A program made the position numbers and the translations under genes. The notes beneath the pieces were generated by a model. It was given only the letters and a program-made list of their open reading frames with translations. It was not told the DNA's origin and searched no databases. Shown piece after piece: positions 5,833-43,253 of a stretch of DNA of 48,697 nucleotides; within the stretch, counting starts at the first letter, position 1, and each line of letters starts with the position of its first letter. Source of the stretch: Christensenellales bacterium (GTDB lineage: Bacteria > Bacillota > Clostridia > Christensenellales > Aristaeellaceae); NCBI GenBank assembly GCA_045113475.1, contig JBGUIY010000068.1, forward strand, positions 1-48,697, in the 5' to 3' direction.

Positions 5833-5866
5833 GTCGCGTTCTCCTTCTTGCTGTCTGCGCCGCGAT

Positions 5867-7039
5867 TTATATGCGCGCGACGCCGGTATCCCTCGCGGCC
5901 TGGGCAACGGCCTTCGCCACTGCGGGCCCTACCCGCGGGTCGAATGCCTGGGGCATGATGTGTTCCGCGTTCAGTTCGCTGTCGGACACCAGCCCGGCGA
6001 TGGCGCGGGAGGCGGCCTGCTTCATGGCTTCGTTGATCTCCTTCGCGCGCACGTCCAGCGCGCCGCGGAAGATGCCGGGGAACGCCAGCACGTTGTTGAT
6101 CTGGTTCGGGTAGTCGCTGCGTCCGCAGCCTACCACGGCGGCGCCGGCGGCTTTCGCCTCGTCGGGGAAGATCTCCGGCGTCGGATTGGCCATGGGGAAG
6201 ACGCAGGCGTCCGCCGCCATGGAGCGGATCATGTCCGGGCTTACGATGCCGGGGGCGGAAACGCCGATGAACACGTCCGCGCCTTTCATCGCGTCCGCCA
6301 GCGTGCCGCGCAGGTGCGCGCGGTTGGTGACGAGGCTCATTTCCCGCTGGGCGTCGTTCAGCTCCGCCATGCCTTCGCAGATCACGCCGAAGCGGTCCAC
6401 CAGGGTGATATTCCGGGCGCCCATGTTCAGCAAGTGCTTTGAAATCGCGATCCCGGCGGAACCGGCGCCGTTGACCACGATCCGGACTTCCGGCAGGCGC
6501 TTGCCCACCACGCGCAGCGCGTTCAGCAGCGCCGCGGCCACCACCACGGCGGTGCCGTGCTGGTCGTCGTGGAAGACGGGGATATCACAGATCTCCTTGA
6601 GCCGCCGCTCCACCTCGAAGCAGCGCGGCGCGGCGATGTCCTCCAGGTTGATGCCGCCGAAGGAGCCGGACAGCAGGTATATCGTGCGCACCAGCTCGTC
6701 CACGTCCTTTGTGCGGATGCAGAGCGGGAAAGCGTCCACGTCCGCGAAGGCCTTGAAGAGGCTGCACTTGCCCTCCATGACCGGCATGCCCGCTTCCGGC
6801 CCGATGTCGCCCAGGCCCAGCACCGCGGAGCCGTCCGTGATGACGGCCACCAGGTTGCTGCGGCGGGTCAGCCGGTAGGACAGCTCCGGGTCCTTCTGGA
6901 TCGCCAGGCAGGGCTCCGCCACGCCGGGGGTATATGCCAGGGACAGTTCATGGGCGTTGGTGACCGGCACCCGGGAAACGACTTCGATCTTGCCGTGCCA
7001 CTGCCCGTGGGCCCGGAGCGCTTCTTCCTTGATGCTCAT
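5867..7039 (-). CDS. NAD(P)-dependent malic enzyme
   Basis: 390 aa. N-terminal LAYTPGVAEPC, VITDGSAVLGLGDIGPEAGMPVMEGK and GGINLEDI motifs are characteristic of short bacterial malic enzymes. Confidence 0.85.
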   Translation of the reverse strand: MSIKEEALRAHGQWHGKIEVVSRVPVTNAHELSLAYTPGVAEPCLAIQKDPELSYRLTRRSNLVAVITDGSAVLGLGDIGPEAGMPVMEGKCSLFKAFADVDAFPLCIRTKDVDELVRTIYLLSGSFGGINLEDIAAPRCFEVERRLKEICDIPVFHDDQHGTAVVVAAALLNALRVVGKRLPEVRIVVNGAGSAGIAISKHLLNMGARNITLVDRFGVICEGMAELNDAQREMSLVTNRAHLRGTLADAMKGADVFIGVSAPGIVSPDMIRSMAADACVFPMANPTPEIFPDEAKAAGAAVVGCGRSDYPNQINNVLAFPGIFRGALDVRAKEINEAMKQAASRAIAGLVSDSELNAEHIMPQAFDPRVGPAVAKAVAQAARDTGVARI

Positions 7040-7057: not shown

Positions 7058-9292
7058 TCAGTATCCGCGTTCGAACAGCATGTATTCGCTGTCGTTCATC
7101 TGATAGCGCAGCTGCCCGTTCTCCTCCAGGGTCAGGCGCGCCTCGTCGTAGTACATCTGTCCGTTCGTCATCGTCCAGGTCTTGCCGCCGTCGGGGATGA
7201 TGTAGACCAGCTCGCCGGTGCCGTCGGCCTTCAGCGTCAGCCTCATGTCGATGTTCAGCTTCGCCGGATCCAGGGATACGCCGCCCGTGACCATCGCCAC
7301 GCCGCGCCACGTGCCCAGATAGGGCTCCACCGGGGATACCGGCGCGGGCGCCGGCGTCACCGTTACCGGGACGGGGGGCTCGGTATCGCGCTCAAAGATG
7401 AAGCAGCTGATTTCCGCTTTGTTATATTGCAGGGTGCCGTCATTCAGCAGGAAGAGCGGGATGCCGTTGTAGCGGAACTGACCGTCCACGATCATCCAGC
7501 TGCCGCCGCCGTCGGGGAAGCCTACGGTCAGCTCGCCGGTGCCGTCGGCGTTCAGCACCAGCGACAGCTCGATGCCCGACGCGGCGGGGTCGACAGACAT
7601 ACCGCCCGCGACGATCGCGATGCCGCGCCACCGGCCGATGTATTCAGCAGGATCGATCAGCGGGGGCTCCGGCGTGGGCGCGGGGGTCGGCACGGCCGTC
7701 GGTACCGGCGTGGGTACGGCGGTCGGGACTGCCGTTGGCACCGGCGTAGGCACGGGCGTGGGGACCGCCGTAGGAACTGCGGTAGGGATCGCAGTGGGGA
7801 CTGCGGTGGGAACCGGCGTGGGTTCCGCGGTGGGTTCGGGCGTCCGGACGGGGCGGATCACCGGCAATGCCGTGGCGGGGAAAGAGGGAAAGACCGCCGG
7901 CGCTTTGGTCGGCTCGGAGGTCTGGACGGGAGCGGAAGCCGGCGCCGCTGTCGCCGGGAAAATCGGCCAGAGGGGCCTGGGGGTGTCAGGCGAGGGCTCC
8001 GCGGTCGGTTCGGGCGTAGGCACGGACGTGGGGACTGCCGTAGGAGCTGCGGTGGGGACTGCGGTTGGAACGGGCGTCGGTTCGGGCGTTGGCACAGGTG
8101 TGGGCACCGGCGTCGGTTCCGGCGTGGGCTCGGGGGTCGGGGTCGCCGCCGGGCGCGGCGTCAGCCTGGGCAGGGGCTGCACGGCGCGTCCTGCCGGCGC
8201 GTCGATGCCCAGCGCGGCCAGCGCCGTCTGCGCCTGGGCGATGTCCGCGTCCGTCGCGTTCCAGCCCAGGAGCACCTGCTCGATCTTCGCGTCTTCAAAG
8301 GCGTCTGCCGGCATTTCCGGCACGGACGTCCCCGCGAAAGTCAGCGCGCCGATCTTCATGTCCGAGAAGGCCTCGCTGCCGACCTCTTTCAGCGACGCCG
8401 GAAGCGTGAACTCGGACATCGAAACGTAGGTGAAGGCGTCTCCGTCGATTTTGACGAGGCCCTCGGGCAGTATCACGCTTTCGACGTAGCTGCCCCTGAA
8501 GCACCCGTAACCGATCTCCTTCACGGTATCCGGCAGGACCGCCTGATAAATGTTCAGGTTGCCCTCGTTGAAAGCGTAGTTGCCGATACGGGTGACGGGC
8601 ACGCCGTCGATCTCCGGCGGTATGATCACGTTGACCGCAGCGCCGCTGTATAGTTTGATTTCCCCTTTTCCGGGATCGAAATCAAAGCACTCCGCCGGGG
8701 TATAATCCGGGATGACGGCGTTCCGTCCACTGGGCTGAACGTTCAGCCCTTCGGGCAGCGTACGCAGATACGCCTCCATCTGGTCGTCCGGCACGTAGAG
8801 CACAAAATCCGAAGGCAGGCTCCTGAAGGAGCCGCTTTTGAGCACCGGCACGGGGCCCGTGAAGGTGACCGACTTCAGCGCTTTGTCGAAGGCAAAGCAG
8901 CTTTCGCCGACATAGCAGAGGTTTGCCGGCAGCGTGATTTCCGTCAGCAGAGGACAGCCGTTGAAATTGCCGCCCGCGATGGCGCCCAGGCTGTCGGGCA
9001 GTATGACCTCCGTCAGCGCGGAGGTCTTGTACGTCGCCGAATCGCCGATCGACTGGATGCCCTCTTCAAAACGCAGTGAAGTCACGCTGCCGTTGTTCAT
9101 GAATACCGCGCGCTGTACCGTCGTGACCGGTTTGCCGCCGATCTCGGCGGGCACCGTCACGTCGCCGCCGGGGCCGGTATACTTGGTGATCCGGTTGCGG
9201 CTGTCAACGGTGTAGTCTTCGTCCGCCAGCGCCGTGCAGAATACGCAGCAGAGGCAGAGGGCCAGGGTGAGCAGCAGGATCGTTTTTTTCAT
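7058..9292 (-). CDS. secreted leucine-rich-repeat (BspA/LRR_5-like) surface protein with Pro/Thr linkers and a duplicated C-terminal domain
   Basis: Start at ATG 9292 (MKKTILLLTLALCLCCVFCTALA signal peptide), with GGAGG upstream. Repeated units of the type xVxLPxxLxxIGxxAFxxC. Long PT-rich linker. Two ~90-aa C-terminal repeats (YIGRWRG.../YLGTWRG...). Confidence 0.75.
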   Translation of the reverse strand: MKKTILLLTLALCLCCVFCTALADEDYTVDSRNRITKYTGPGGDVTVPAEIGGKPVTTVQRAVFMNNGSVTSLRFEEGIQSIGDSATYKTSALTEVILPDSLGAIAGGNFNGCPLLTEITLPANLCYVGESCFAFDKALKSVTFTGPVPVLKSGSFRSLPSDFVLYVPDDQMEAYLRTLPEGLNVQPSGRNAVIPDYTPAECFDFDPGKGEIKLYSGAAVNVIIPPEIDGVPVTRIGNYAFNEGNLNIYQAVLPDTVKEIGYGCFRGSYVESVILPEGLVKIDGDAFTYVSMSEFTLPASLKEVGSEAFSDMKIGALTFAGTSVPEMPADAFEDAKIEQVLLGWNATDADIAQAQTALAALGIDAPAGRAVQPLPRLTPRPAATPTPEPTPEPTPVPTPVPTPEPTPVPTAVPTAAPTAVPTSVPTPEPTAEPSPDTPRPLWPIFPATAAPASAPVQTSEPTKAPAVFPSFPATALPVIRPVRTPEPTAEPTPVPTAVPTAIPTAVPTAVPTPVPTPVPTAVPTAVPTPVPTAVPTPAPTPEPPLIDPAEYIGRWRGIAIVAGGMSVDPAASGIELSLVLNADGTGELTVGFPDGGGSWMIVDGQFRYNGIPLFLLNDGTLQYNKAEISCFIFERDTEPPVPVTVTPAPAPVSPVEPYLGTWRGVAMVTGGVSLDPAKLNIDMRLTLKADGTGELVYIIPDGGKTWTMTNGQMYYDEARLTLEENGQLRYQMNDSEYMLFERGY
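7660..8175 (-). repeat. Pro/Thr-rich low-complexity coding repeats (linker of the LRR protein)
   Basis: Encodes PTPEPTPEPTPVPTPVPT... and TPVPTAVPTAIPTAVPT... runs. The DNA is quasi-repetitive (GGCACGGGCGTGGGGAC-type units). Confidence 0.7.
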
Positions 9293-9382
9293 GGTACGTC
9301 CCTCCAGTCGTGTCGGCCGTTCAGCAAACGATTTTAAGTACATTGAAAGGGTTCCGTTCTGCTTTTCGGGTTTTTGTGACGC

Positions 9383-11200: not shown

Positions 11201-12343
11201 TCAGCTTTCTGATGTCTCCAGCACCGCCGCGCTCTCCTTCAGCAGCCGGATGACGGGCAGCTGCTGCGGGCACGCGGCCTCGCACTGCCCGCAGGCGATG
11301 CAGTCCGTCGCCCGTCCGTGCTCCTTCGTCGCGTTCCGGTAACGCCGGCGGGAGGCTTCGGTGGTGTTATAGATCAGGTGCTCGTTCATCGCCCGGAAGA
11401 TATCCGGGATCGGGATATTCATCGGGCAGCCGTCCACACAGTAGCGGCAGGCGGTGCAGCCGATGCTCTTCACGCTCATCAGCGCCCGGCGAGCCTGTTC
11501 CACCACGGCCAGCTGTCCGGCGTTCAGGCCGGTGAAGCCGGTCATGGTCTTCAGGTTGTCGCGCATCTGGTCAATGGCGGACATGCCGGACAGCACCGTC
11601 AGCACGCCCTCCTGCGAGGCAGCAAACCGCAGTGCCCAGCTGGCGGGGGAGGCCTCCGGATCGGCGGCGGTCAGCACGTCGCGCACGCGCTCTGGCGGGT
11701 TGGCCAGGGTCCCGCCCTTTACCGGCTCCATGACCACCACCGGTTTGCCGTGCGCACGCGCCACTTCGTAGCAGCGCCGGGAGGCGACACGGCTGTCCTC
11801 CCAGTCCGCGTAGTTGATCTGCAGCTGCACGAATTCAGCGTCGGGGTGTTCGGTCAGCAGCCGGTCGAGCAGCTCGGGGCCGGCGTGGAAAGAGAAGCCC
11901 CAGTGCCTGATCAGGCCTTCCGCCTTCATCCTGGCGGCAAAGTCCCAGATGCGGTATTCGTCGTACATGGGCAGGTTGCCCAGGCCGACGGCGTGGAGCA
12001 GATAAAAGTCGAAATATCCGGCTTCGGTGCGTTCCAGGCTGGTAAAGAGCTGGCGCTCCGCGGCCTCACGGTTTTCCGCCACCCGGGCGTTCAGCTTGGT
12101 CGCCAGCAGGAAGCGCTCCCGCGGATACCGCCGCACCAGCGCGTCCCGGGCCGCCTCCTCCGACAGGCCGCCGTCATACACGAAAGCGGTGTCAAAGTAG
12201 TTGAAGCCCTTCTCCAGGAACAGATCCGTCATTTCCATGATCTGCTCGATATCCATGGCGCCGTCTTCACGCCTGGGCAGGCGCATCAGCCCGAAGCCAA
12301 GCTTTCCGATCCCGTTTATCTCCAGCTCGCTCAGCAAGACCAT
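11201..12343 (-). CDS. aldo/keto reductase fused to a 4Fe-4S ferredoxin-like domain (paralog of 4711-5832)
   Basis: Start at ATG 12343, with GGAGG upstream. Motifs LGFGLMRLP, YFDTAFVYDGG, CTACRYCVDGCP and CIACGQCEAACP. Roughly half the residues match 4711-5832 by eye. Confidence 0.8.
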   Translation of the reverse strand: MVLLSELEINGIGKLGFGLMRLPRREDGAMDIEQIMEMTDLFLEKGFNYFDTAFVYDGGLSEEAARDALVRRYPRERFLLATKLNARVAENREAAERQLFTSLERTEAGYFDFYLLHAVGLGNLPMYDEYRIWDFAARMKAEGLIRHWGFSFHAGPELLDRLLTEHPDAEFVQLQINYADWEDSRVASRRCYEVARAHGKPVVVMEPVKGGTLANPPERVRDVLTAADPEASPASWALRFAASQEGVLTVLSGMSAIDQMRDNLKTMTGFTGLNAGQLAVVEQARRALMSVKSIGCTACRYCVDGCPMNIPIPDIFRAMNEHLIYNTTEASRRRYRNATKEHGRATDCIACGQCEAACPQQLPVIRLLKESAAVLETSES

Positions 12344-12566
12344 CCGTCCTCCTTCACAAGTCTTTGCAACGGCACACAATCATCCGTTTACATTGTACAC
12401 GTTCTGCAAAGGTTTTTCAAGAGGGATGCGCCCGAATCACAGGGCGGAACGTGCGTGCGGCGGATCCGGCGTTGACCGCGCGGGGAAATCCGATTATAAT
12501 AATGAAGCCGTCCGGACTGCCGGAGGGCATGAGCCCAATTATTTATTTCGAAGGACATCACGCGAT

Positions 12567-13778: not shown

Positions 13779-15128
13779 TCACTTCAGAAATACGAACTCT
13801 TCCAGCTCGAAGAGGGGCTTCCCTTCGAAGAACTGGCCCATCCAGCCCTCGACGCGGTGGTCGGCTTTCAGGTAAAGCGCGTGCCGGCCCGTGACGGGGG
13901 CTGTTTTGGTGCGGTAAACGCCGTCGCCCGCGCCGACGGCGCACATGCCGATCTCTTTGCCGTCGGGGGCGTCCAGCAGCACATGGACGCGGCAGGGCGT
14001 GCCGCAGCCGCGGGTCTTCAGGGCGATCGTCATGGGTTCGCCGGTATGGTCCTCGCCGAAATCGAAGTATTTGTATCCCATCACGCAGCCGTCGGTGACG
14101 CCTGTGACGACCCGGGTGAACAGGTCCAGCTCGGTCACGTAGCATCCGCCCGTCAGCACGCAGGCGATCTCCGCTTTGGTGATCTGATAGGGATTCAGCG
14201 CGTCCTCGAAGCCCAGTGAGGTCATCTCCACCGGCGGAATGGTGCCGTCGGGCAGGATCTCGATTTTCTCCACGCAGGCGCGGCGGGACATGATGGTGTT
14301 GTTGGTCATGCGGTGGTAGAACACGTACCACTGCCCGTTGATGCAGGCCACGGAGCCGTGGTTGTTGCCGGCAGGATAGTCCACGCCGTTGTCGATGATG
14401 AAGCCGCGGTAGATAAAGGGCCCCCGCGGGCTGTCGGCGGTGGCGTAGGCCAGGCGGCTGCCCCGGCGGGGAGAATAGATCAGGTAATAGCGGCCATTGA
14501 TTTTCCGCGGGGAGCTGGCCTCATAGAACCGCCGCTCCGGGGGCATGGCTTCCGCGTCGTCCACCGCTGGTCCCATCAGGGTGCCGGGCAGCACTTCGCA
14601 CATGCTGTCCGGATCCAGCTCGTTCATCCAGGATTTCTCAAAGCCGTAATATACATATACCCGGCCGTCTTCATCCACCAGCACGCCGGCGTCGTTGAAG
14701 ATGCCGTCATCGCCGACTTCCGCGTCCGCCTCCGCTCCGTTTTCCTTTGTATAACGGTAGGAGGAGAGCAGGCGGAAGGGCCCTTCGGGCCGGTCCGAAA
14801 CGCCGACTGCGCCTTTGGAGCCGACGATATAGGCATAGAGATAGTATTTCCCGTCTTTTTCGACCACGTCCGGCGCGAAGAGGGCGTGATCCGTCCAGGG
14901 CGTGTCCGCGGGCCTTCCGGAAGCGGACGGCAGGGTGCGGAAGCTGTCCCCGTGGCAGCGCCAGTGGTTCAGATCGTTCACGTCCGCCGACCAGACCTTG
15001 AGCTTGTGATCGCAGAAGCTTTCCCCGGACGCCCGGTCGTGGGAGCCGTACAGATACACGCGGTTCCCGAACACCCGTGGCTCCCCGTCCGGAATGTATT
15101 CCCATAAAGGCAAAAACGGATTGGGCAT
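13779..15128 (-). CDS. glycoside hydrolase family 43 (xylosidase/arabinofuranosidase-type)
   Basis: N-terminus MPNPFLPLWEYIPDGEPRVFGNRVYLYGSHD is typical of GH43 enzymes. GGAGG 8 nt upstream. C-terminal beta-sandwich-like extension. Confidence 0.8.
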   Translation of the reverse strand: MPNPFLPLWEYIPDGEPRVFGNRVYLYGSHDRASGESFCDHKLKVWSADVNDLNHWRCHGDSFRTLPSASGRPADTPWTDHALFAPDVVEKDGKYYLYAYIVGSKGAVGVSDRPEGPFRLLSSYRYTKENGAEADAEVGDDGIFNDAGVLVDEDGRVYVYYGFEKSWMNELDPDSMCEVLPGTLMGPAVDDAEAMPPERRFYEASSPRKINGRYYLIYSPRRGSRLAYATADSPRGPFIYRGFIIDNGVDYPAGNNHGSVACINGQWYVFYHRMTNNTIMSRRACVEKIEILPDGTIPPVEMTSLGFEDALNPYQITKAEIACVLTGGCYVTELDLFTRVVTGVTDGCVMGYKYFDFGEDHTGEPMTIALKTRGCGTPCRVHVLLDAPDGKEIGMCAVGAGDGVYRTKTAPVTGRHALYLKADHRVEGWMGQFFEGKPLFELEEFVFLK

Positions 15129-15328
15129 GGATGCGGCCTCCTTTGCCGTTCAGCCGGCCGGGCCTGATGCCGCCGGCGTTTCTGATTATTACTGGTTATT
15201 ATATAAAAAACACCGCCGCGGCGCAAGACCAGGATGTGCTTTCGGGCATTGCTTTTTGGCGGCGGTTTTTGTATTGCCTTTACAGCTGATGCGAGGCGTT
15301 TTCAGGTGTCCTGAATGCCTGCAAACGA

Positions 15329-15357
15329 TTGACAGTCCTTGATTCGCGTGTTATAAT
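15329..15357 (+). promoter_or_regulatory. consensus sigma-70 promoter for the HAD genes
   Basis: TTGACA (15329-15334), 17-nt spacer, TATAAT (15352-15357). Confidence 0.55.
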
Positions 15358-15379
15358 CCTCATGAATTAAACGGACGAA

Positions 15380-15416
15380 AAGCAACCGGAATTTATCCGG
15401 TGTTGCTGCTTTTTGT
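15380..15416 (+). terminator. terminator-like hairpin in the leader between promoter and HAD gene
   Basis: AGCAACCGGA-ATTTAT-TCCGGTGTTGCT followed by GCTTTTTGTT. Lies upstream of the GGAGGA RBS at 15435. Confidence 0.4.
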
Positions 15417-15443
15417 TCTGTTATCAGCGATATTGGAGGATAT

Positions 15444-16286
15444 ATGAAAAAAATCCGGGCCATCCTGCTGGACTTTGACGGCACCAGCCTGCAGAGGGAT
15501 CAGGTCTATATTTCCATGGCGAACAAGCGCGCCTTGTGGAAAGCCATGGACAGGGGCGTCGAGATCATTCCCTGTACCGGCCGCAGCGCGGACATGCTGC
15601 CGCCGCAGATCGACACTGAAAAACGCATCCGCTACATCGTCTCTGCGAATGGGGGACGCGTGGTCGATCGCCTGACCGGCAAGGTCATTTTCCAGTCGAC
15701 CTTCACGCCGGAGGAAACGGCGGCCTTCTGCCGCATGTACGAGGGCGGGAAAATGTATTCGGAGATCGCGGCCGAGGGCAAGCTGTATCTGGAATCCGCC
15801 GTGTGCGCGGATCCCGGCCTGTATGCCGTGCCGCCGCATCACGTCTGGTTTATGGAAACGAGACGGCCGATCCCCCTGGAAAAGCCCTCTGAGTATTTTC
15901 TGGAGCACCGGATCGGCGCCGAAAAATTCAACCTGTACGGCGTGCCCGAGGAGATGCAGCAGCCGCTGATCCGGCAGATCGAGGCCTCCGGCTGTGCGGA
16001 TATGAGCGCCGGCGCGGGCAGGGACATCCAGTTCTTCCCCAAGCGCCAGAAGCGGGTGGAAGCCATGGAGGCCCTGTTCAAGCACCTGGGCTACGGCTTT
16101 GAAAGCGTCATGAGCCTCGGCGACAGCGCGCTGGACGCGGACATGATCTCCCGCGCCGGCATCGGCGTCGCCATGGGGAACGCGCCGGACGACATCAAGG
16201 CGCAGGCGGATTACGTCACCGCGCCCTACGATCAGGACGGCGTGGCGGAGGCGGTCTATAAATTCATTCTGAACGGAGAAAGGTGA
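15444..16286 (+). CDS. Cof-type HAD-IIB family phosphatase
   Basis: 280 aa. Motif I LLDFDGTSL and late motif GDSALDADM. GGAGGA RBS. Confidence 0.8.
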   Translation: MKKIRAILLDFDGTSLQRDQVYISMANKRALWKAMDRGVEIIPCTGRSADMLPPQIDTEKRIRYIVSANGGRVVDRLTGKVIFQSTFTPEETAAFCRMYEGGKMYSEIAAEGKLYLESAVCADPGLYAVPPHHVWFMETRRPIPLEKPSEYFLEHRIGAEKFNLYGVPEEMQQPLIRQIEASGCADMSAGAGRDIQFFPKRQKRVEAMEALFKHLGYGFESVMSLGDSALDADMISRAGIGVAMGNAPDDIKAQADYVTAPYDQDGVAEAVYKFILNGER

Positions 16287-35752: not shown

Positions 35753-36667
35753 TTATTCGTATTTGATGCGCCGGTCGATGACGCCGTACAGCAGGTCGAC
35801 GACGAGGTTCATAAGCACCAGCAGCGCCGAGTAGAAGAGCGTGACGCCCATGATCAGCGGGTAGTCACGGTTGTTGATGGATTCCACGAAGAACTTGCCC
35901 ATGCCCGGGATGGTGAAGATCTTCTCGATAACGAAGCCGCCGGTCAGGATGCCCGCGGTCAGGGGTCCCAGGTAGGTGACGATGGGCAGGATGGCGTTGC
36001 GCAGGGCGTGCTTGAACAGCACGGCGTTCTTGCGCAGGCCCTTGGCGCGCGCTGTCTTGATGTAGTCCTGCCGGAGCACGTCCAGCATGCTGGAGCGCAT
36101 CAGACGCGCGATATAGCACATGGGGTTGAAGGAAAGGGCGAGGGCGGGCATGATATAGTGCTTCCACGTCTTCAGGCCCAGCGTGGGCAGCCAGCCCAGC
36201 TTGACGCCGAAGAAGAACAGCAGCACTGTCGCCATCACGAAGTTCGGCACCGCGATGCCCAGGTTAGCAACGAACATCACGGTCCGGTCAAGTATCTGAT
36301 TGTGCCTGAAAGCGGCGACAATGCCCACCGGGATACCGATGACCACGGCCAGCAGGATGGCGACCACGCCGACGCCGGCGGAAACGGGGAATTTCTCAGC
36401 CAGGATCTGATTCACCGTAAAGCCGATGCGCTTGTAGCTGTCGCCCAGATCCAGGCGAACCAGGCGCTGGAGATACATCCAGTACTGTTCGAGGATGGGT
36501 TTATCCAGGCCGTATTTGCTTTCCATCATTGCTACGGTCTTGGCGCTGGCACGCTCTGTATTGAAAGGACCGCCCGGGATCACGTTCATCAGGAAGAACG
36601 TAATGGTCGCGATCACGAACAGTGTCAGCAAGGATGAAAGTATACGCCGAATTACGAATTTTGCCAA
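35753..36667 (-). CDS. peptide ABC transporter permease (OppB-like)
   Basis: TTG 36667 lies 5 nt after AGGTGA and gives MAKFVIRRIL.... The alternative GTG 36676 lacks an RBS. EAA-like loop DYIKTARAKGL. Confidence 0.8.
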   Translation of the reverse strand: MAKFVIRRILSSLLTLFVIATITFFLMNVIPGGPFNTERASAKTVAMMESKYGLDKPILEQYWMYLQRLVRLDLGDSYKRIGFTVNQILAEKFPVSAGVGVVAILLAVVIGIPVGIVAAFRHNQILDRTVMFVANLGIAVPNFVMATVLLFFFGVKLGWLPTLGLKTWKHYIMPALALSFNPMCYIARLMRSSMLDVLRQDYIKTARAKGLRKNAVLFKHALRNAILPIVTYLGPLTAGILTGGFVIEKIFTIPGMGKFFVESINNRDYPLIMGVTLFYSALLVLMNLVVDLLYGVIDRRIKYE

Positions 36668-36700
36668 AAAAATCACCTACTATTCATGATACAAACATTT

Positions 36701-36728
36701 ATTATACTTATTTTGGCTCTCGCGTCAA
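36701..36728 (-). promoter_or_regulatory. sigma-70-like promoter of the peptide ABC operon
   Basis: On the minus strand: TTGACG (36728-36723), 16-nt spacer, TATAAT (36706-36701). Confidence 0.45.
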
Positions 36729-36826
36729 GCATTTTGTCATTTAAAGCGAAAAAAGATACAAAATATGTACAAATATGCAGGATTTGATCCGGATTATGCA
36801 AAACGGGCGAAATCCGGCGCCGAGAA

Positions 36827-37360
36827 TCATTTCTTCTGCGTCTTCTCTTCCGCTTCCATCCGGTCGAGGACGCGGCGAACGTCGTCCATCGTCACCCCGG
36901 GGGGCAGCGCCGTTTCCGGCTCTGCCGGGACAGTCTTCCGCTCCGGCGGGGCGTTCCGCTTGCGGATCGCTGCAAACAGGAGCAGCCCGTCGATCAGGCA
37001 GCACAGGACGCCGAAGACCAGGCAGGCCGTCTGCTCGACATAGCGGCTGATCTCAAGGGACGGCCGCAGCCAGAAAAGGCACCATATGAGGCTGAAGAAC
37101 AGCGCCGCGGCGGGCAGGCCCAGGCCCGGCCGGCTTCTGTGGTCCGAAGAGGCGCTGCCGGAGGCGCGCACGAGGAGGATCAGGGACAGCGCCAGCGCCG
37201 GCAGCCCGAAGGGGCCGATGCTGCCGAACAGCGGCCCCACGGCGCCGAAATCCTTCCGGCAGGCATTTATAAAGGAAAGGACGTACATCGTCATCATACG
37301 GTCCGAGTAGCGGGAAAGCACATCCGGCAGCCGCTCGAGCATGTTCAAAGTGTACCTCAT
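36827..37360 (-). CDS. hypothetical membrane protein
   Basis: 177 aa. GGAGG 5 nt upstream. Several hydrophobic helices and a charged C-terminal tail. No family recognised. Confidence 0.55.
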   Translation of the reverse strand: MRYTLNMLERLPDVLSRYSDRMMTMYVLSFINACRKDFGAVGPLFGSIGPFGLPALALSLILLVRASGSASSDHRSRPGLGLPAAALFFSLIWCLFWLRPSLEISRYVEQTACLVFGVLCCLIDGLLLFAAIRKRNAPPERKTVPAEPETALPPGVTMDDVRRVLDRMEAEEKTQKK

Positions 37361-37466: not shown

Positions 37467-37495
37467 TTGCCAAATCGCCGCTTCTTCTGTATAAT
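37467..37495 (+). promoter_or_regulatory. sigma-70 promoter of the proS leader
   Basis: TTGCCA (37467-37472), 17-nt spacer, TATAAT (37490-37495). Confidence 0.55.
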
Positions 37496-37499
37496 AGCG

Positions 37500-37709
37500 C
37501 CTGAACGGGGAGCACGGTCCGCATGGACGGCACAGAGAGCGCGCCGCGGCTGAAAGCGCGCATGAGCGGACGGTACCCGCCCCGGGATCATTCCGTAAAA
37601 AGCGGACGGCTCGTCCCCGTTACCGGGCGGGAAAGCGGGCGCATATGCATGTGCCAAGCAAGGTGGTACCGCGAAGCAAGCTTCGTCCCTGCGTGAGGGA
37701 CGTTTTTTT
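37500..37709 (+). promoter_or_regulatory. T-box leader (tRNA-Pro-responsive transcription attenuator)
   Basis: AGAGAG bulge motif (37534-37539). GCTGAAAG distal-loop-like motif (37549-37556). T-box consensus AAGGTGGTACCGCG (37660-37673). Terminator CGTCCCT-GCGTG-AGGGACG plus T7 (37684-37709). CCC followed by a purine at 37576-37579 in the expected specifier region. Confidence 0.8.
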
Positions 37710-37754
37710 GTGTCAAGCGCGGGCTTTCAATTTTATGTAAGAGGAGATACAGTC

Positions 37755-39194
37755 ATGGCGGACAAGAAGCAGGAATTCGTAACTCACATCACCCCCCGGG
37801 ACAAGGACTTTTCACAGTGGTACACGGACGTGGTCACCATGGCTGACCTGATGGACTACACGCCGGTGCGCGGCTGCATGGCCATGAAGCCTTACGGCAA
37901 CCGCATCTGGGAGCTGATCCGCGAGGGCCTGGACCGGCGTTTCCAGGAGACCGGGCACGAGAACGTATCCATGCCCATGCTGATCCCGGAAAGCCTGCTG
38001 CTCAAGGAAGCGGAGCACGTGGAAGGCTTTGCCCCCGAAGTGGCCTGGGTGACCCAGGGCGGTACGGAGAAGCTGCAGGAGCGGCTGGCCGTGCGCCCCA
38101 CCAGTGAGACCATTTTCTGCACCATGTTCGCCAAGTGGGTGGAGAGCTGGCGCGACCTGCCCCTGAAATACAACCAGTGGTGCTCCGTCATGCGCTGGGA
38201 AAAGACCACCCGCCCCTTCCTGCGCACGGCTGAGTTCTGGTGGCAGGAAGGCCATACCGTGCACGCCACCGCCGAGGAATCCCAGGAAGAAACCATGACC
38301 ATGCTGAACGTGTACCGCGATTTCGCGGAGCAGGAGCTGGCCATGCCCGTGTTCTGCGGCCAGAAGTCCGAGAAGGAGAAGTTCGCCGGCGCCCGCGCCA
38401 CCTACTCCATCGAAGCCATGATGCAGGACGGCAAGGCCCTGCAGGCCGGCACCTCCCACAACTTCGGCACCAACTTCACCGTGCCCTTCGACGTCAAGTA
38501 CCTGAGCAAGGACGGCAAGCTGGAATACTGCCACGAGACCAGCTGGGGCGTATCCACCCGCCTGATCGGCGCCATCATCATGACCCACGGCGACGAGCGC
38601 GGCCTGAAGCTGCCCCCCGCCATCGCGCCTTACCAGGTGGTGCTGGTGCCTGTCGCCGCGCACAAGGGCGGCGTGCTGGAAAAGTGCGCCGAGGTCGCCG
38701 CTGAACTGCGGAAGGCCGGCCTGCGCGTGAAGCTGGACGACCGCGACAACGTGTCCCCGGGCTTCAAGTTCAACGAGTGGGAGCTCAAGGGCGTGCCCGT
38801 CCGCGTGGAGATCGGCCCCCGCGACATCGAGAAGGGCGCGGCCATGGTCTGCCGCCGCGACAACTTTGAAAAGGCATCGCTGCCCCTGGAGGGCCTCGCC
38901 GAAGCGCTGAAGGCCATGATGGACGACATCACCGCCAACATGTTCAGGATCGCGGACGAGTTCCGCAAGGCCCACACCAGGGACGTGTTCAATATGGACG
39001 AGCTGGGCGAACAGGTCAACGGCGGCTATGCCCGGGCCATGTGGTGCGGCGACCAGGCCTGCGAGGACGAGATCAAGAACCGTTTCTCCGCCACCTCCCG
39101 CAACATGCCCTTCGACCAGACTCCCATCGGCGACACCTGCGTCTGCTGCGGGAAGAAGGCCAATAAGGTCATGTACTTCGCGAAGGCGTATTAA
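37755..39194 (+). CDS. proS: proline--tRNA ligase (archaeal/eukaryote-like class II type with C-terminal zinc-binding domain)
   Basis: Start at ATG 37755, with AGAGGAG upstream. Motifs FSQWYTDVV, RPTSET and AGTSHNFG. C-terminal CVCCGKKA...YFAKAY typical of this ProRS type. Confidence 0.9.
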   Translation: MADKKQEFVTHITPRDKDFSQWYTDVVTMADLMDYTPVRGCMAMKPYGNRIWELIREGLDRRFQETGHENVSMPMLIPESLLLKEAEHVEGFAPEVAWVTQGGTEKLQERLAVRPTSETIFCTMFAKWVESWRDLPLKYNQWCSVMRWEKTTRPFLRTAEFWWQEGHTVHATAEESQEETMTMLNVYRDFAEQELAMPVFCGQKSEKEKFAGARATYSIEAMMQDGKALQAGTSHNFGTNFTVPFDVKYLSKDGKLEYCHETSWGVSTRLIGAIIMTHGDERGLKLPPAIAPYQVVLVPVAAHKGGVLEKCAEVAAELRKAGLRVKLDDRDNVSPGFKFNEWELKGVPVRVEIGPRDIEKGAAMVCRRDNFEKASLPLEGLAEALKAMMDDITANMFRIADEFRKAHTRDVFNMDELGEQVNGGYARAMWCGDQACEDEIKNRFSATSRNMPFDQTPIGDTCVCCGKKANKVMYFAKAY

Positions 39195-39201
39195 TCAACT
39201 G

Positions 39202-39239
39202 GTAGCCGGTTCTCTGTTGTTGTGCCGAGAACCGGCTAC
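39202..39239 (+). terminator. proS terminator hairpin
   Basis: Perfect 13-bp stem GTAGCCGGTTCTC (39202-39214) pairs with GAGAACCGGCTAC (39227-39239). The T-tract is weak (TGACTTTGT). Last GC-rich sequence before the low-GC island. Confidence 0.65.
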
Positions 39240-39303
39240 TGACTTTGTATAGATTGATTCTATTGGTGTGTTGACAATTTGATTTTCCTGGAGGTGATGA
39301 TGC

Positions 39304-42300
39304 ATGGTCATTAGCTGCAAGATGTGCGGTGGCGACTTAGTATTCAATCCAGGAGATACGTATGGCAATTGCTTACACTGTGGCCGGACATCGACTTTAC
39401 CAAAGATCGCTGACAACGACACAAGTCGGTTAAATCTTTATAGACTGGCAAACGCTTTTCTGATTTCGGGTGAATACGAAAAAGCAGAAAGTGCATATGA
39501 GGATATTCTTAAAATGGACCCTGATGAGGCAGAAGCTCATTGGGGCAGATTGCTGTGTAAATTTGGTGTTGAATATGTTGAAGACCCGTCAACACGACGC
39601 AGAATCCCAACATTGAATCGTATGTCAAAAATCTCGGTATTAGCCGACATAGATTTTGAAATTGCAAAAAAGAATGCCCGGGATTCGATCAGTAGGAGCA
39701 TTTATCAGCAAGACGCTGAAGAAATCGCTTCTATCCAAAGACAAATACTCAAATTAAAAACTGACGGAAAACCATTTGATGTATTTATATGCTACAAAGA
39801 TAAAGATGGCAGTGAACGTAGAACAGAAGATAGTGAGATAGCTGAAGAAATCTATAAAGTACTGACAAATAGGGGCTTACACGTCTTTTTTTCACGTGAG
39901 ACTCTAAAAAATGCCGCAGGTGTTCAGTTTGAGCCCATTATTTATGCTGCAATAAGCACTGCCAGAATAATGATCGTTGTTACAACTAACAAAGATTATG
40001 TTAGTAAAGAATCTGCCTGGGTATATAATGAATGGAATCGATATCTGAAAAGAATGAATGTTGGAACTCAGTTATTGATCCCGTGTTATAAAGGAATCCC
40101 CATTGAAGAATTACCCGAGGAATTGAAAGCTTTCCAATCTTACGATATTGGCAGTGTTACATTCCTAGAGCAGTTATTAGAACAGGTAAATAATTTTTTA
40201 AACATAAAGAATAAGGACACTCAAACGGATAATAAGCAAGTAAATCCGTCATCAATGAATATGGCAAATCGTGCCATGCTTGCATTAGAAGAATCTGATT
40301 TTAAAACCGCAGCGCAATTTGCTGAACAAGCATTAAACCTTGATGCATTCAATGGTTATGCTTACTTATGCAAGTTGTTAATTGAATATCAATTGCAAAA
40401 ACCAGAGCAACTTGCAAATTTGAAAACACCTCTTGATAAGTCAATAAACTATCAACGCGCTATCAGATATAGTGACGACTCTGTTAGAAAACCTCTCATT
40501 GAAATGAATGAAAGGATTGTTCTGCGCAACAAACAGATTATTGAAGAAAGAAACAGAAGAAAGAAAATACTTAATGATGCAGAAACTAAATTACTTTCAG
40601 CAGAAACGCTATCTGAGATAAATGATATAATGCGCCAACTCAAAAGCATTAGTGATTTTGAAGGCGTAAATGATGTCTTATCACAGTGCGAAAATAAGAA
40701 AGCACGTTATTATGAAAAACAGTATTCATTGGCCACTTCATTACAGCAAAGAAAGGATTATAGTGCAGCCCTTAAAACGTATAGTACTATTCTGGGTTAC
40801 AAAGATACAACGCAAAGAATAGAATTTTGCAAAAAGGAAATTCAAAGAATTAGCGAAGCGGAAAAAATCCTAAACGAAAGAAAAAGAGTAACAAAAGACC
40901 TAATTACAAGAGGTAATGAAGCATTAAAAAAGAAGGATTTTGAAACTTCAAGACTCTTTTTTGAACAAGTACTGACCAGTCAACCAAAGCATAATGATGG
41001 TTCCCTTGGCTTACTCTTTTCATTGCTAAGGGTTAGAAATTTTGATGAATTAGCTGGTTTATATGCTCCATTTGATAATGTAAAAGAGTATAATCAGCTA
41101 ATAAATAACTGTAATGATATTCAGCAAATGGCCATTGACCAATGTTTGAAAAAAATAAAACAACGCAATGAGAATGAAAAGAAACGAATTGTAGTAAACA
41201 ATGCAAAAAAGGCTTTAGAAAGCGCTACTACTATAGAAGAATGCCGAGAAATCCAAGAACAAATTGAACCACTTGCTGATTTCGAAGGCGTTAGGTCTGT
41301 TATTACTGACTGTGATATAAAGATCAACAGGATAAAGAGTGAAGAATACTTATCAGCATACAGATTAGAAGTACAGGAAGAATGGGATAAGGCCATTGAG
41401 ATCTATAAAAGACTTGAAGGTTATAATGATTCTGCAGAACGCATAGTTTTCTGTAAAATGCAAAAGGAGAAAAAGAAGGAAGAACTAGATCGTGAAAAAG
41501 AAGTACAAGAAGAAAAAGCTAGGCAGAGAGTCCTTGAACTAAAGAAAAAACAAAAGAAGCATCGTCTATTCATTATTTTTACAGCTATAGTGATTATATT
41601 GGTAATAATATATGTTGTATATGTTGTTCCTATGATGTATTATAGCAAAGGAATGGAATATGCAAAGAAAAAGGAATGGGATACTGCTATAGCTGAGTTT
41701 AAACTAGCAGGGAATTATAAGGATTCAGAAGTACAGATAAAGGAAATGAATTATTGTAAAGCAAAGGAATTACAAGATGTGGGTGACCATAGTACAGCAA
41801 TTGAGTTGTATAAATCATTAAGGGGCTATAAGCTTTCAGAACAATATATCAAACTAAGTCAAATGCAAATTGTTGGGAATACTATTAAGTATGGTCGGTA
41901 TGAGCAAGACAACGATTTAACAAATGGAAAAGAAGACATTGAATGGATAGTATTGAACGTACAAGAAGATGGCTTATGTGTTTTGACTACGCGTTACGCA
42001 TTAGATGCAAAACCATTTAGTTCAAAAAAAGAGAAAAATACAACATGGAATAATTCAACTGTAAGGGAATGGCTGAATAATGAGTTTTACAAAGATGCAT
42101 TTTCGGAAGAAACTGATATATTGTTAGCATCTACGGGTAAAGACAACGATCCTGGTAATGAAGGGCTAGAAATTAATGATGCAATTGAAGATGACAAAGT
42201 TTTTCTTCTTGGCTCCCAGGAAATCAACCATTTTTTTAAAACGAAAGATGAAAGAATATGTAGTGCTACCCCATATTTGGCTAATATGGATAAAGAATCT

Positions 42301-42504
42301 CAGCTATTCGTTGATACAGATAAAAATGTAGTTTGGCTTTTGCGTAGTATTAAGCAGGAAGATGGTACTGTATTAGGGGTATTTTGCGATGGTTCTCTTT
42401 GTAATGGAGCAGTTGATGCTATTGCAGCAATAAGACCTGCGATATGCATTAGTACTAGTAATGCAAGGTTATTACTACACGTAAAAGATATGTTGGAGGA
42501 GTAA
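39304..42504 (+). CDS. 1066-aa zinc-ribbon / TPR-like / TIR / single-TM / DUF6273-like protein (candidate transmembrane TIR sensor-effector)
   Basis: GGAGGTGA ~7 nt upstream of the ATG. Domains by residue: aa 5-26 CxxC-x14-CxxC; aa ~157-290 TIR (FDVFICYKDKD; SAWVYNEW with Glu243 at nt 40030-40032); aa 319-725 two ~205-aa helical repeats; aa 754-778 TM helix after KKKQKKHR; aa ~857-1050 DUF6273-like motifs (IEWIVLNV, STVREWLNNEFYKDAF, DKVFLLGSQE, VWLLRS, IRPAICIS). About 32% GC. Confidence 0.85.
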   Translation: MVISCKMCGGDLVFNPGDTYGNCLHCGRTSTLPKIADNDTSRLNLYRLANAFLISGEYEKAESAYEDILKMDPDEAEAHWGRLLCKFGVEYVEDPSTRRRIPTLNRMSKISVLADIDFEIAKKNARDSISRSIYQQDAEEIASIQRQILKLKTDGKPFDVFICYKDKDGSERRTEDSEIAEEIYKVLTNRGLHVFFSRETLKNAAGVQFEPIIYAAISTARIMIVVTTNKDYVSKESAWVYNEWNRYLKRMNVGTQLLIPCYKGIPIEELPEELKAFQSYDIGSVTFLEQLLEQVNNFLNIKNKDTQTDNKQVNPSSMNMANRAMLALEESDFKTAAQFAEQALNLDAFNGYAYLCKLLIEYQLQKPEQLANLKTPLDKSINYQRAIRYSDDSVRKPLIEMNERIVLRNKQIIEERNRRKKILNDAETKLLSAETLSEINDIMRQLKSISDFEGVNDVLSQCENKKARYYEKQYSLATSLQQRKDYSAALKTYSTILGYKDTTQRIEFCKKEIQRISEAEKILNERKRVTKDLITRGNEALKKKDFETSRLFFEQVLTSQPKHNDGSLGLLFSLLRVRNFDELAGLYAPFDNVKEYNQLINNCNDIQQMAIDQCLKKIKQRNENEKKRIVVNNAKKALESATTIEECREIQEQIEPLADFEGVRSVITDCDIKINRIKSEEYLSAYRLEVQEEWDKAIEIYKRLEGYNDSAERIVFCKMQKEKKKEELDREKEVQEEKARQRVLELKKKQKKHRLFIIFTAIVIILVIIYVVYVVPMMYYSKGMEYAKKKEWDTAIAEFKLAGNYKDSEVQIKEMNYCKAKELQDVGDHSTAIELYKSLRGYKLSEQYIKLSQMQIVGNTIKYGRYEQDNDLTNGKEDIEWIVLNVQEDGLCVLTTRYALDAKPFSSKKEKNTTWNNSTVREWLNNEFYKDAFSEETDILLASTGKDNDPGNEGLEINDAIEDDKVFLLGSQEINHFFKTKDERICSATPYLANMDKESQLFVDTDKNVVWLLRSIKQEDGTVLGVFCDGSLCNGAVDAIAAIRPAICISTSNARLLLHVKDMLEE

Positions 42505-42506
42505 AA

Positions 42507-43253
42507 ATGAGTAGTGAAAGCAAAAACAAGGAAGAACAGCGCCGGGAGCTGAACGGCATCACCTATTTTGACCGCGGACGGCTGACGGGCCGCGACGGGA
42601 AGCAGTACGACCGGTACGCCATCCAGACCCACTTCATCGAGGTGGGGGAGGATCAGGCGGAACTGGTGAAGAAGTACGTACTGCCCCTGTACCAGCCCGG
42701 GGACGTGATGGCCTTCGGCGCGAAGGTCATGGCCATGTGCACGAAGAACGTGCGCACCAAGGAGCAGGTGCATCCCGGCTTCTGGGCCAAGGCCCTGTCC
42801 CGCCATGCCAGCGAGACCAAAGCGGGCATCGGCATGCACGACGCGTACAAGCTGCAGCTGGCCATCGACATGGTCGGCGCGCCCAAGGTCGTGTTCGCGT
42901 CCGTCGCGTCTGCGGTGACCAAACTCTTCGGCGTGCACGGCGTGTTCTACAAGATCGTCGGCCCCGGCGTGGCGGGCATCGACGGCTTCTATTACCGTTC
43001 GTCCTTCGACCGTTACAAGGACCTGGCGCTGATAAACAACACCAATGCCCAGGAGCTCTGCGACGCGCTGGAAAAGGCGACGGGCGTGCCCGTGGTGCTG
43101 ATGGACGCCAACGATATCGACCAGAACCAGCTGGGCAAGTGCCATGACTTCCCGCTCACGGACGAACAGATCCAGGACGCGCTGAAGGACAATCCCTCCG
43201 GCCAGGGCGGCGAACTGACGCCCTTCATTCTGATCCGCCCGGTCAGGGAGTGA
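42507..43253 (+). CDS. CofE-like (F420-0:gamma-glutamyl ligase fold) family protein, function uncertain
   Basis: 248 aa. The ATG lies 2 nt after the TIR-gene stop, with GGAGGAG inside that gene's 3' end. PGDVMAFGAKVMAM, VAGIDG, VVLMDANDI and NPSGQGGELTPF resemble the CofE fold family. Confidence 0.5.
   Translation: MSSESKNKEEQRRELNGITYFDRGRLTGRDGKQYDRYAIQTHFIEVGEDQAELVKKYVLPLYQPGDVMAFGAKVMAMCTKNVRTKEQVHPGFWAKALSRHASETKAGIGMHDAYKLQLAIDMVGAPKVVFASVASAVTKLFGVHGVFYKIVGPGVAGIDGFYYRSSFDRYKDLALINNTNAQELCDALEKATGVPVVLMDANDIDQNQLGKCHDFPLTDEQIQDALKDNPSGQGGELTPFILIRPVRE

Follow-up and report, generated by a model that had tools for sequence, protein, structure and literature searches.

A low-GC single-gene island between proS and a cofE-like gene in a Christensenellales bacterium and its predicted membrane-spanning TIR receptor

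TIR domains with NADase activity act in several bacterial immune systems (Thoeris ThsB, AbTir, SpbK, TIR-STING, and TIR-SAVED), and hotspots between core genes that carry variable defence cargo are an established concept. Here we describe a low-GC island that holds a single gene and lies between proS (prolyl-tRNA synthetase) and a cofE-like gene on contig JBGUIY010000068.1 of a Christensenellales bacterium (assembly GCA_045113475.1), a GC-rich rumen organism. The sequence analysed was one complete NCBI contig of 48.7 kb, termed the window in the following, and positions are given on its forward (+) strand unless stated otherwise. The island gene encodes a protein of 1066 aa in which a TIR domain is combined with a C-terminal, lectin-like DUF6273 domain. 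We regard it as likely that the gene is an imported orphan copy of an uncharacterised receptor which is Toll-like in layout, has a TIR NADase domain, and is probably defensive.

The island protein resembles the bacterial TIR NADase immune systems in having a TIR fold with a conserved catalytic Glu, in having AbTir with 3AD as its closest solved structure, and in its accessory and patchy occurrence in defence-type neighbourhoods. It differs in that no recognised effector adjoins the gene and no PADLOC model matches it, and in that it is predicted to be a single-pass membrane protein with the presumed sensor outside the cell, whereas the known systems sense inside. With the animal Toll-like receptors it would share the layout of an extracellular ligand-binding domain, one transmembrane (TM) segment, and a cytoplasmic TIR domain, and ligand-induced clustering is the natural model of activation for both. 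This is an analogy and not a whole-protein homology. The predicted N-in/C-out orientation is the reverse of that in Toll-like receptors, the ectodomain is a C-terminal lectin-like DUF6273 and not an N-terminal leucine-rich-repeat domain, the TIR domain appears to be enzymatic and not purely an adaptor scaffold, and a zinc ribbon, a TPR, and long helical repeats are added. As for the location, one slot was found to be empty in some closely related species and to be filled in others by a toxin-antitoxin pair, by an acyltransferase of the surface-modifying kind, by an unknown gene, or by the TIR gene, as is the case in the core-gene defence hotspots. However, the slot described here is only 10-15 nt inside an operon, it receives one gene or one gene pair, and it has no mobile-element gene.

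DUF6273 is a C-type-lectin-like domain and a common target of diversity-generating retroelements (DGRs) in receptor-binding and adhesion proteins of gut phages (PMC10743442; PMC11792537; bioRxiv 10.1101/2024.10.15.618418). The phage proteins ("tentaclins," Mtd-like DGR targets; PMC10743442, PMC11792537) have a domain of the same Pfam family and the same fold, but the island domain is host-encoded, membrane-tethered, and joined to a cytoplasmic TIR domain, and is not part of a virion. DGR-diversified C-type-lectin "antigen sensors" have also been described as fusions to effectors of conflict systems (Kaur et al., 2020, PMC7159879; Dore et al., 2024, PMC10907252), and these NTPase-based systems are the nearest conceptual relatives of the island family. 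In both cases a sensor with the C-lectin fold is joined to effectors, among which TIR can occur, and some members of the island family are true DGR targets with the variable repeat (VR) at the C-terminus of the lectin domain. The described systems are built on STAND or MoxR-vWA NTPases and are mostly found in multicellular bacteria and mostly cytoplasmic, whereas the island family lacks an NTPase, is membrane-anchored with an outside sensor, is linked to SPFH proteins, and belongs to gut and rumen Clostridia. It also diversifies mostly through arrays of paralogs, and the window copy has no template repeat (TR), VR, or reverse transcriptase (RT).

The GC content of the window was profiled in windows of 300 nt and 1 kb. 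A block from about 39600 to 42450 had a GC content of 0.31-0.36 (300-nt windows), while the rest of the contig is at about 62%. In the same 300-nt windows the left flank was found to range from 0.55 to 0.69 (0.63-0.69 in the interior of proS) and the right flank from 0.54 to 0.68, with the GC content back at 0.61-0.68 by 42600. The lowest 1-kb value anywhere else on the 48.7-kb contig was 0.548. Overall the island has a GC content of 0.33 vs. 0.62 for the host. A single open reading frame (ORF) occupies the block (39304..42504, +), and its GC content at codon positions one, two, and three is 0.45, 0.31, and 0.28, whereas the third-position value (GC3) was 0.76-0.91 in all 38 other high-scoring ORFs of the contig. 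The abrupt low-GC island filled by one gene, which an initial annotation of this DNA had read from hand counts, is therefore real by both the GC profiles and the codon positions. A second and smaller dip (0.43-0.45) was observed at 36450-36900, in the intergenic region between an Opp permease gene and a gene encoding 177 aa, and is probably a promoter region.

The edges of the insert were compared with a syntenic locus in which the site is empty (L010, RUG13503). The alignment to this locus covers 30.1-44.1 kb of the window, breaks at 39190, and resumes at 42496, and these two points adjoin in the empty-site genome (9986 and 9989). The inserted segment spans 39195..42506 (+), about 3.31 kb, and takes the place of a 10-15-nt spacer between proS and the cofE-like gene. 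The left junction (39191-39194) is located at the proS stop codon, which is TAA in the window and TGA in relatives. The right junction (42496-42506) reads GGAGGAG within the final island codons, followed by TAA, AA, and the ATG of the cofE-like gene. It was first placed near 42537, which is 30-40 nt too far to the right; nucleotides 42516-42537 belong to the cofE-like gene, of which they form the native and conserved start, rich in Lys and Glu (ESKNKEEQ), and not to the island.

Two further assemblies have the same right junction. L001 (ENA ERZ1029115, 3657 nt) corresponds to 39107-42763 of the window with 99.73% identity (10 mismatches) and crosses both junctions, as it contains 86 nt of proS, the entire island, and 257 nt of the cofE-like gene. 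L183 (Logan SRR25030105) has the last 339 nt of the island gene joined to the cofE-like gene via an identical TTGGAGGAGTAAAAATG. The 10 and 18 mismatches speak against a common read source for all three assemblies. Codons 2-3 of the cofE-like gene (42510-42515) are AGT AGT (Ser-Ser) in the window and L001 but GGC ACY (Gly-Thr) in L183, L002, and L012, a 4-nt change exactly at the junction. Slightly different codons occur in other sister species (e.g., GGT ACC in L010 and GGC AGC in L015). Since the cofE-like gene of L183 begins with the native ATGGGCACT immediately 3' of the island, the ATGAGTAGT of the window is a local variant and not island sequence.

At its 5' end the insert carries a GC-rich hairpin (39202-39239, +) with a perfect 13-bp stem and a 12-nt loop; the region 39190-39310 folds with -41.7 kcal/mol (z = -4.6). 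The hairpin has no clean U-tract and is missing from the empty-site relatives. Because these have only 10-15 nt between the proS stop codon and the next ATG, the hairpin lies inside the insert and is not the native proS terminator it had been taken for. It may act as a partial terminator or as an RNA-stability element after proS.

We surveyed the slot in 80 loci around homologues of the downstream gene and in 8 loci from close relatives, and located proS and the cofE-like gene in each. The relatives are metagenome-assembled genomes from rumen and gut that are labelled Clostridiales, Clostridia, Christensenellales, or Christensenella. An empty junction, which the initial annotation had proposed to look for, was found in five of them. 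In L010, L015, L016, and L017 the spacer consists of TGA plus 10-15 nt with GGAGG, while L083 has a TAA stop codon and about 30 nt with GGAGG ahead of the tblastn match to the cofE-like gene. Other loci had different cargo. L002-L009 and L018 carry a Phd/YefM antitoxin and PIN toxin pair (778 nt), L011 an Acyl_transf_3 membrane protein gene on the opposite strand (2.0 kb), L012 an unknown gene of 544 aa (1.7 kb), and L182 has 300 nt of non-coding spacer, including a terminator and a promoter of its own. Since the content between proS and the cofE-like gene varies in this way, the slot is a cargo hotspot, and the spacer is a recombination hotspot of 10-15 nt within the operon of the empty-site genomes. 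The island gene was absent at the slot from every sister species examined, with five sites empty and the others holding different cargo, and is thus not the low-GC gene fixed at this locus across a deep clade that had been named as the sign of old residency. Two more distant relatives (L038:3374-3964 and L041:4023-4610) were found to have, some 6 kb upstream of the cofE-like gene, a DUF6273-like coding stretch that is 34% identical to the ectodomain encoded in the window. Two other contigs (L074 and L078), which have a cofE-like gene of 72% identity, are labelled Phocaeicola dorei and Candidatus Saccharibacteria and are probably mis-binned contigs.

The age of the insertion was approached by comparing alleles. 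Between L001 and the window, 4 of 3489 nt differ over the island and the first 80 nt of the right flank, whereas 6 of 168 nt differ deeper in the cofE-like gene, all of them synonymous (Fisher p = 1.6e-6). This contrast fits a homologous-recombination tract ending just right of the island, although the contig is short and strain mixing is possible. Between the window and the L183 allele, 13 of 339 nt are changed (3.8%), 10 synonymously and 3 nonsynonymously. The gene has therefore resided in this species-level lineage for long enough to reach about 4% divergence, which arose under purifying selection. L183 comes from another sample, and its positions 1-701 hold the end of an IS630-family (DDE_3) transposase gene, located at CTAG 42166-42169 inside the lectin domain; CTAG/TA is the customary target of this insertion sequence (IS) family. 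Sister species without the gene have a proS of about 90-92% nucleotide identity to that of the window. As the gene is missing in these and has diverged by about 4% within the lineage, its acquisition is bracketed between the two. We are confident that the gene was acquired horizontally at the hotspot, from a low-GC origin, after the split from the sister species and before the divergence of about 4%. It would have come from an unsampled low-GC lineage in which the family is native, entered without an element-encoded recombinase, probably by illegitimate or microhomology recombination, and later persisted and spread in the species, with homologous recombination acting through the conserved sequence on either side.

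The protein of 1066 aa (39304..42504, +) consists of a zinc ribbon, TPR, TIR, duplicated helical repeats, a TM helix, extracellular helical repeats, and DUF6273. Pfam matches were obtained for DUF6273 (residues 890-1050, E 1.9e-16), TPR_1 (45-74, E 1.1e-12), and TIR_2 (160-283, E 5.1e-11). An AlphaFold2 model built with 93 homologues had a mean pLDDT of 85. In this model a small zinc ribbon of beta strands leads into a TPR hairpin and then an alpha/beta TIR domain, after which come helical repeats of about 450 residues and a long helix that includes residues 757-775. This hydrophobic helix is followed in the model by two or three helical hairpins and a mixed alpha/beta domain. A profile search of PDB sequences with the island protein gave TPR matches only.

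The zinc ribbon (CxxC...CxxC, residues 5-30; 39316..39393, +) forms three short strands in the model, and among 94 family members C8, C23, and C26 are invariant and C5 nearly so. The cytoplasmic TPR-like/coiled-coil region (40246..41523, +) is all-helical in the model. It contains a module of about 210 aa twice (residues 315-520, or 301-520 in the alignment to relatives, and 521-740), and both copies align to the single region ~317-520 of relatives. Most relatives have one copy, and with its internal duplication the island protein exceeds typical members by about 200 aa. A single TM helix comprises residues 754-779 (41563..41640, +), with the hydropathy peak at 757-775. Exactly one TM segment was found in 120 of 120 family members tested, and in these the 15 residues before the TM segment contain on average 6.8 Lys and Arg vs. 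2.2 after it. Based on this asymmetry the N-terminal 750 residues are placed in the cytoplasm and the last ~290 outside the cell. The protein is thus, with high confidence, a single-pass N-in/C-out membrane protein with cytoplasmic zinc ribbon, TPR, TIR, and helical repeats and an extracellular lectin-like DUF6273.

The TIR domain (residues 157-285; 39772..40158, +) scored 43.6 bits against TIR_2, for which the cut-off is 28. Foldseek found the TIR fold in the model, with AbTir-3AD (7uxu) matched at a TM-score of 0.79 and an rmsd of 2.5 A, and SARM1, RUN1, and L7 matched as well, so that the closest solved folds are those of NADase TIR domains. Glu243 (codon 40030-40032) lies in the motif SAWVYNEW, in which 94 sequences show no variation at W239, N242, E243, and W244. 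In the alignment to the plant TIR proteins Roq1 and SNC1, E243 falls on their catalytic Glu in SxWCLxEL, the motif of the alpha-C helix. From sequence and model, the TIR domain looks to be of the enzymatic type and is a predicted NADase. The NCBIfam model ThcB4 gave 20 bits against a cut-off of 220. The gene is not a Thoeris system, as it is alone on its island, has proS and the cofE-like gene as neighbours, and has no ThsA-type or other effector.

The extracellular DUF6273 domain (residues 858-1050; 41875..42453, +) has a C-type-lectin-like fold. It matched the Pfam family (PF19789) at 60.8 bits against a cut-off of 23.5 over model positions 2-171 of 172. Full-length Foldseek searches gave mostly TPR proteins and were uninformative on the ectodomain, and the C-terminal domain was therefore modelled on its own, which gave a pLDDT of 89. 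The best PDB match was the C-terminal domain of Legionella Lcl (8q4e) with a probability of 0.99 but an E-value of 0.011, which is modest support, followed by many C-type lectins at low probability. Against predicted structures of phage DUF6273 proteins the E-value was 1e-8.

All family loci were scanned for DGRs as near-repeats with mismatches on the adenines of one copy. Three loci, all from human-gut metagenome contigs, were positive (L156, L154, and L142). In L156 the VR (13806-13931) is the final 126 nt of the TIR-DUF6273 gene and is followed by bAvd (14088-14477), the TR (14513-14638), and an RT gene (RVT_1, 14791-15891), so that the TR is located 0.6 kb downstream, between bAvd and RVT_1. 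All 19 of the 19 mismatches are at TR adenines. The repeat pair of L154 (2588-2713/3295-3420) has the template in common with L156 and a different VR, while that of L142 (3345-3467/4036-4158) belongs to a second, distinct system. Residues W1011-P1045 of the window protein (42334-42438) are homologous to the stretch that DGRs hypermutate in these relatives. The window itself was found to contain no TR/VR repeat and no RT, and the island gene is not a DGR target.

The family comprises 4,339 clusters at 50% identity (E 1e-30 or better) and is common in gut and rumen Clostridia. Its members are usually found in tandem arrays of up to six paralogs (L090) beside a Band_7_1 (SPFH) gene with zinc ribbons or SHOCT. 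Further partners are a protein (4-TM) that has four TM helices in about 230 aa and sometimes a small ribbon-helix-helix protein. The recurrent cluster consists of Band_7_1, the 4-TM protein, and one to six zinc-ribbon/TPR/TIR/TM paralogs (e.g., L090, L092, L094, L096, and L097). A Band_7_1 neighbour was present in 40 of the 46 loci of at least 12 kb among L090-L180 (87%) and missing from six. Within one array the paralogs are 55-85% identical in the first 300 residues and only 40-58% in the last 200, and DUF6273 is missing from some of them. A Shedu SduA_C gene is located just upstream of the family gene in L156, and the L090 array has weak AbiH/LmuA/SIR2-like and DUF2971 (PDC-S31-like) genes inside. 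The window has no Band_7_1 gene and only one family copy, and the island gene is therefore an orphan. In a literature search that was not exhaustive, no description of the TIR/TM/DUF6273 architecture, its DGR link, or the SPFH/4-TM cluster was found.

The ectodomain may be a ligand sensor because of its lectin-like fold, the divergence of the ectodomain among paralogs, and the DGR targeting of its C-terminal stretch. SARM1, plant TNLs, and AbTir filaments have established that the NADase site of a TIR domain arises where such domains associate with each other. In the island protein the ectodomain would bind a surface-exposed ligand such as a phage particle, a receptor-binding protein, or a foreign glycan, and a multivalent ligand would cluster the receptors. 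Clustering would assemble the cytoplasmic TIR domains into an active NADase site, and cleavage of NAD+, by depletion or by way of a signal nucleotide, would lead to signalling or to arrest of the infected cell. We give an antiviral role by such a ligand-clustered TIR NADase slightly less than an even chance.

A number of observations weigh against an imported, defensive receptor. With respect to import, the protein search for a donor among 5.8 billion proteins gave a best non-self identity of 30-45%, and none of 1.84 billion representatives was another match of at least 50%. In this library of clusters at 50% identity the island protein represents itself. Identity within single segments reached at most 56% for zinc ribbon/TPR, 50% for TIR, and 36% for the ectodomain. 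In blastn of the island against about 180 fetched loci only short conserved motifs and no nucleotide-level relative were found. The search for a donor lineage, plasmid, or phage that had been suggested at the outset thus returned nothing close. Same-species empty sites were also sought; the P0137 and P0132 contexts proved to belong to other species or to be arranged differently, and empty sites were obtained from sister species only. Furthermore, the first 50 island codons (39304-39453) have a GC3 of 0.50 vs. 0.27 in the remainder (binomial p = 6e-4), and the 110-nt 5' leader of the gene is likewise GC-richer. A mosaic origin via recombination between family members may account for the GC-richer start. 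The original proposal of a very recent transfer from a low-GC source stands for the horizontal acquisition from a low-GC lineage and falls for the timing, since the L183 allele is 3.8% diverged and hit by an IS. With respect to function, this IS630-family disruption shows that the gene is interrupted in one strain, PADLOC has no model for the island protein, and the orphan may not work alone without its SPFH and 4-TM partners. We also know of no established mode of bacterial defence in which phages are sensed outside the cell.

The alternative that best survives is a non-immune surface receptor for glycans or cell contact, or an adhesin that signals inward, in which the TIR domain is a signalling or scaffold module; the pathway could be SPFH/PspA-like envelope stress or cell-cell recognition, for example. 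Bacterial DGR targets are often surface adhesins, which counts in favour of this possibility, and so do the missing PADLOC match and the linkage of the family to SPFH and 4-TM membrane proteins and not to known effectors. In gut phages the DUF6273/C-lectin fold is an adhesion and receptor-binding domain (PMC10743442). However, the invariance of the catalytic Glu in 94 sequences favours an enzymatic over a scaffold TIR domain, known defence genes adjoin some of the loci, and defence genes typically show a patchy distribution of this kind, carried in hotspots and disrupted by IS elements. We therefore consider a non-immune receptor possible but doubtful. What likelihood is left beside the antiviral and the non-immune role is shared by other roles and a non-functional passenger.

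The orphan could also be a non-functional passenger heading for loss, as it lacks the usual SPFH and 4-TM partners and a promoter of its own and is interrupted by an IS630-family element in one strain. Yet the ORF of 1066 aa is intact in two assemblies, every invariant residue of the family is retained, and the divergence from L183 is mostly synonymous (10 to 3). The lack of a Band_7_1 neighbour is shared with 6 of the 46 other long loci. Based on this, a passenger is unlikely.

Even less likely is that the gene is the cargo of a site-specific or transposable element (an integron cassette, an IS-flanked unit, or a remnant of a phage or integrative and conjugative element) whose marks have eroded or lie outside the contig. 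That a single spacer of 10-15 nt received independent insertions could point to a site-specific mechanism, the insert has a hairpin at one end, and an IS630-family element is active in the population. However, the initial annotation had seen no mark of mobility and this was upheld: the window was found to have no tRNA, no flanking direct or inverted repeats, no terminal repeats, no target duplication, and no attC-like site, and no integrase, transposase, or RT was found among 40 ORFs scanned across the contig, which encode transporters, sugar and redox enzymes, TruA, the Opp operon, ProS, and similar proteins. The different cargoes of the slot have no common end sequences. The island is consequently no classical genomic island or integrative element, since recombinase, tRNA/att site, and flanking repeats are all missing. 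Nor is it an integron cassette, as the stop codon is 2 nt from the next ATG, no 3' hairpin and no integrase are present, and the only hairpin lies 5' of the ORF and has no attC-type R boxes. The IS of L183 interrupts the gene and does not flank it. In tblastn searches of phage and plasmid collections only weak matches to the DUF6273 part were obtained, with no close phage or plasmid relative, and in IMG/VR a family member was indicated at 3 weak loci among 2.9 million viral contigs.

We consider it very improbable that the gene is an old resident whose AT-richness is selected or intrinsic to the family. Some arrays are indeed AT-richer than their high-GC host (e.g., L092, 0.46 vs. 0.66 in the flanks), and the 3.8% divergence of the L183 allele implies some age. 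On the other hand, the slot of the sister species is empty or has different cargo, and in the island gene the AT bias extends to codon positions 1 and 2, as expected of a protein that evolved in a low-GC genome. We compared GC content in 50 loci with enough sequence outside the family gene and found that the family gene tracks its host (r = 0.68, slope 0.57), with a mean difference of -0.001 (sd 0.052). As the difference between gene and host is about zero on average, AT-richness as a family trait was rejected. The window gene differs from its host by -0.28, which is 5.3 sd out. Native family members occur in hosts of 31-38% GC (L100, L144, L117, and L158), and a low-GC Clostridia-type donor is therefore the simple inference for the acquired gene.

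An assembly or binning chimera in which a low-GC fragment of another organism was fused to a high-GC contig, an alternative raised by the sudden 30-point GC shift inside a metagenome-assembled contig, is barely credible and was rejected, since the independent contigs L001 and L183 span both junctions and the right junction (in identical sequence), respectively, and the junctions are functional, with the proS stop codon retained and the final island codons providing the ribosome-binding site of the next gene.

Both flanking genes are native. On the left, proS (37710..39194, +; Pfam tRNA-synt_2b, HGTP_anticodon, and ProRS-C_1) has 93-96% aa identity to relatives and a GC3 of 0.89. It is preceded by a T-box leader (37491..37693, +; RF00230, 63.4 bits, E 1.3e-13, full model length), a promoter-like site TTGCCA-17-TATAAT upstream of the T-box (37467-37495, +), and an attenuator-like hairpin (37684-37702, +). 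Rfam gave no match in the entire window at gathering thresholds; the T-box score is below the gathering score of 93 and was therefore missed by the default scan. On the right, the cofE-like gene (42507..43253, +) is the first gene of the downstream high-GC operon and has 95% aa identity to relatives and a GC3 of 0.88. NCBI gives the name F420-0--gamma-glutamyl ligase to a protein that shares its 90% cluster, while the Pfam F420_ligase match is weak (E 9e-4).

The T-box and the promoter-like site are the sole recognisable transcription signals upstream of the island. On its plus strand the island has no sigma-70-like promoter or terminator of its own, which agrees with what had been seen earlier. 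Since it lacks both, the island gene is probably transcribed by read-through from the T-box-controlled proS promoter. A ribosome-binding site GGAGG, as read from the sequence, precedes the ATG by 9 nt (39290..39294, +). At its other end, the final codons of the island gene supply the ribosome-binding site of the next gene, and the old operon would therefore still work with translational coupling kept. Elsewhere in the window, two paralogous fusions of an aldo/keto reductase and a 4Fe-4S dicluster domain are encoded about 6 kb apart on the minus strand (4711-5907 and 11201-12379), and the minus strand at 7058-9343 encodes a 761-aa BspA-type leucine-rich-repeat (LRR_5) protein that is probably a surface protein.

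As an event, the island is of a known and ordinary kind, namely accessory or defence-type cargo at a core-gene hotspot. It is a clear and sharply delimited case of gene gain in a very small hotspot within an operon, without mobile-element machinery, and the analysis recovered the empty site, other cargoes, a signal of recombination within the species, and an allele disrupted by an IS. The larger interest is in the cargo family, which combines an enzymatic-type TIR domain with a hypervariable and sometimes DGR-mutated lectin-like domain, more than in the island. Tentatively, the family may be a repertoire of cell-surface immune receptors in which a conserved TIR NADase module is joined through one TM helix to a variable lectin-like sensor, diversified in germline arrays of paralogs or somatically by DGRs. 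Such receptors would detect phages or other invaders outside the cell together with an SPFH/4-TM membrane scaffold, and the orphan would be a receptor gene that moves by itself between very different genomes and works alone. If this is true, sensing from outside would here be proposed for bacterial defence proteins for the first time, and the family would stand as a prokaryotic counterpart of Toll-like receptors by its layout and of variable immune receptors by the way it diversifies.

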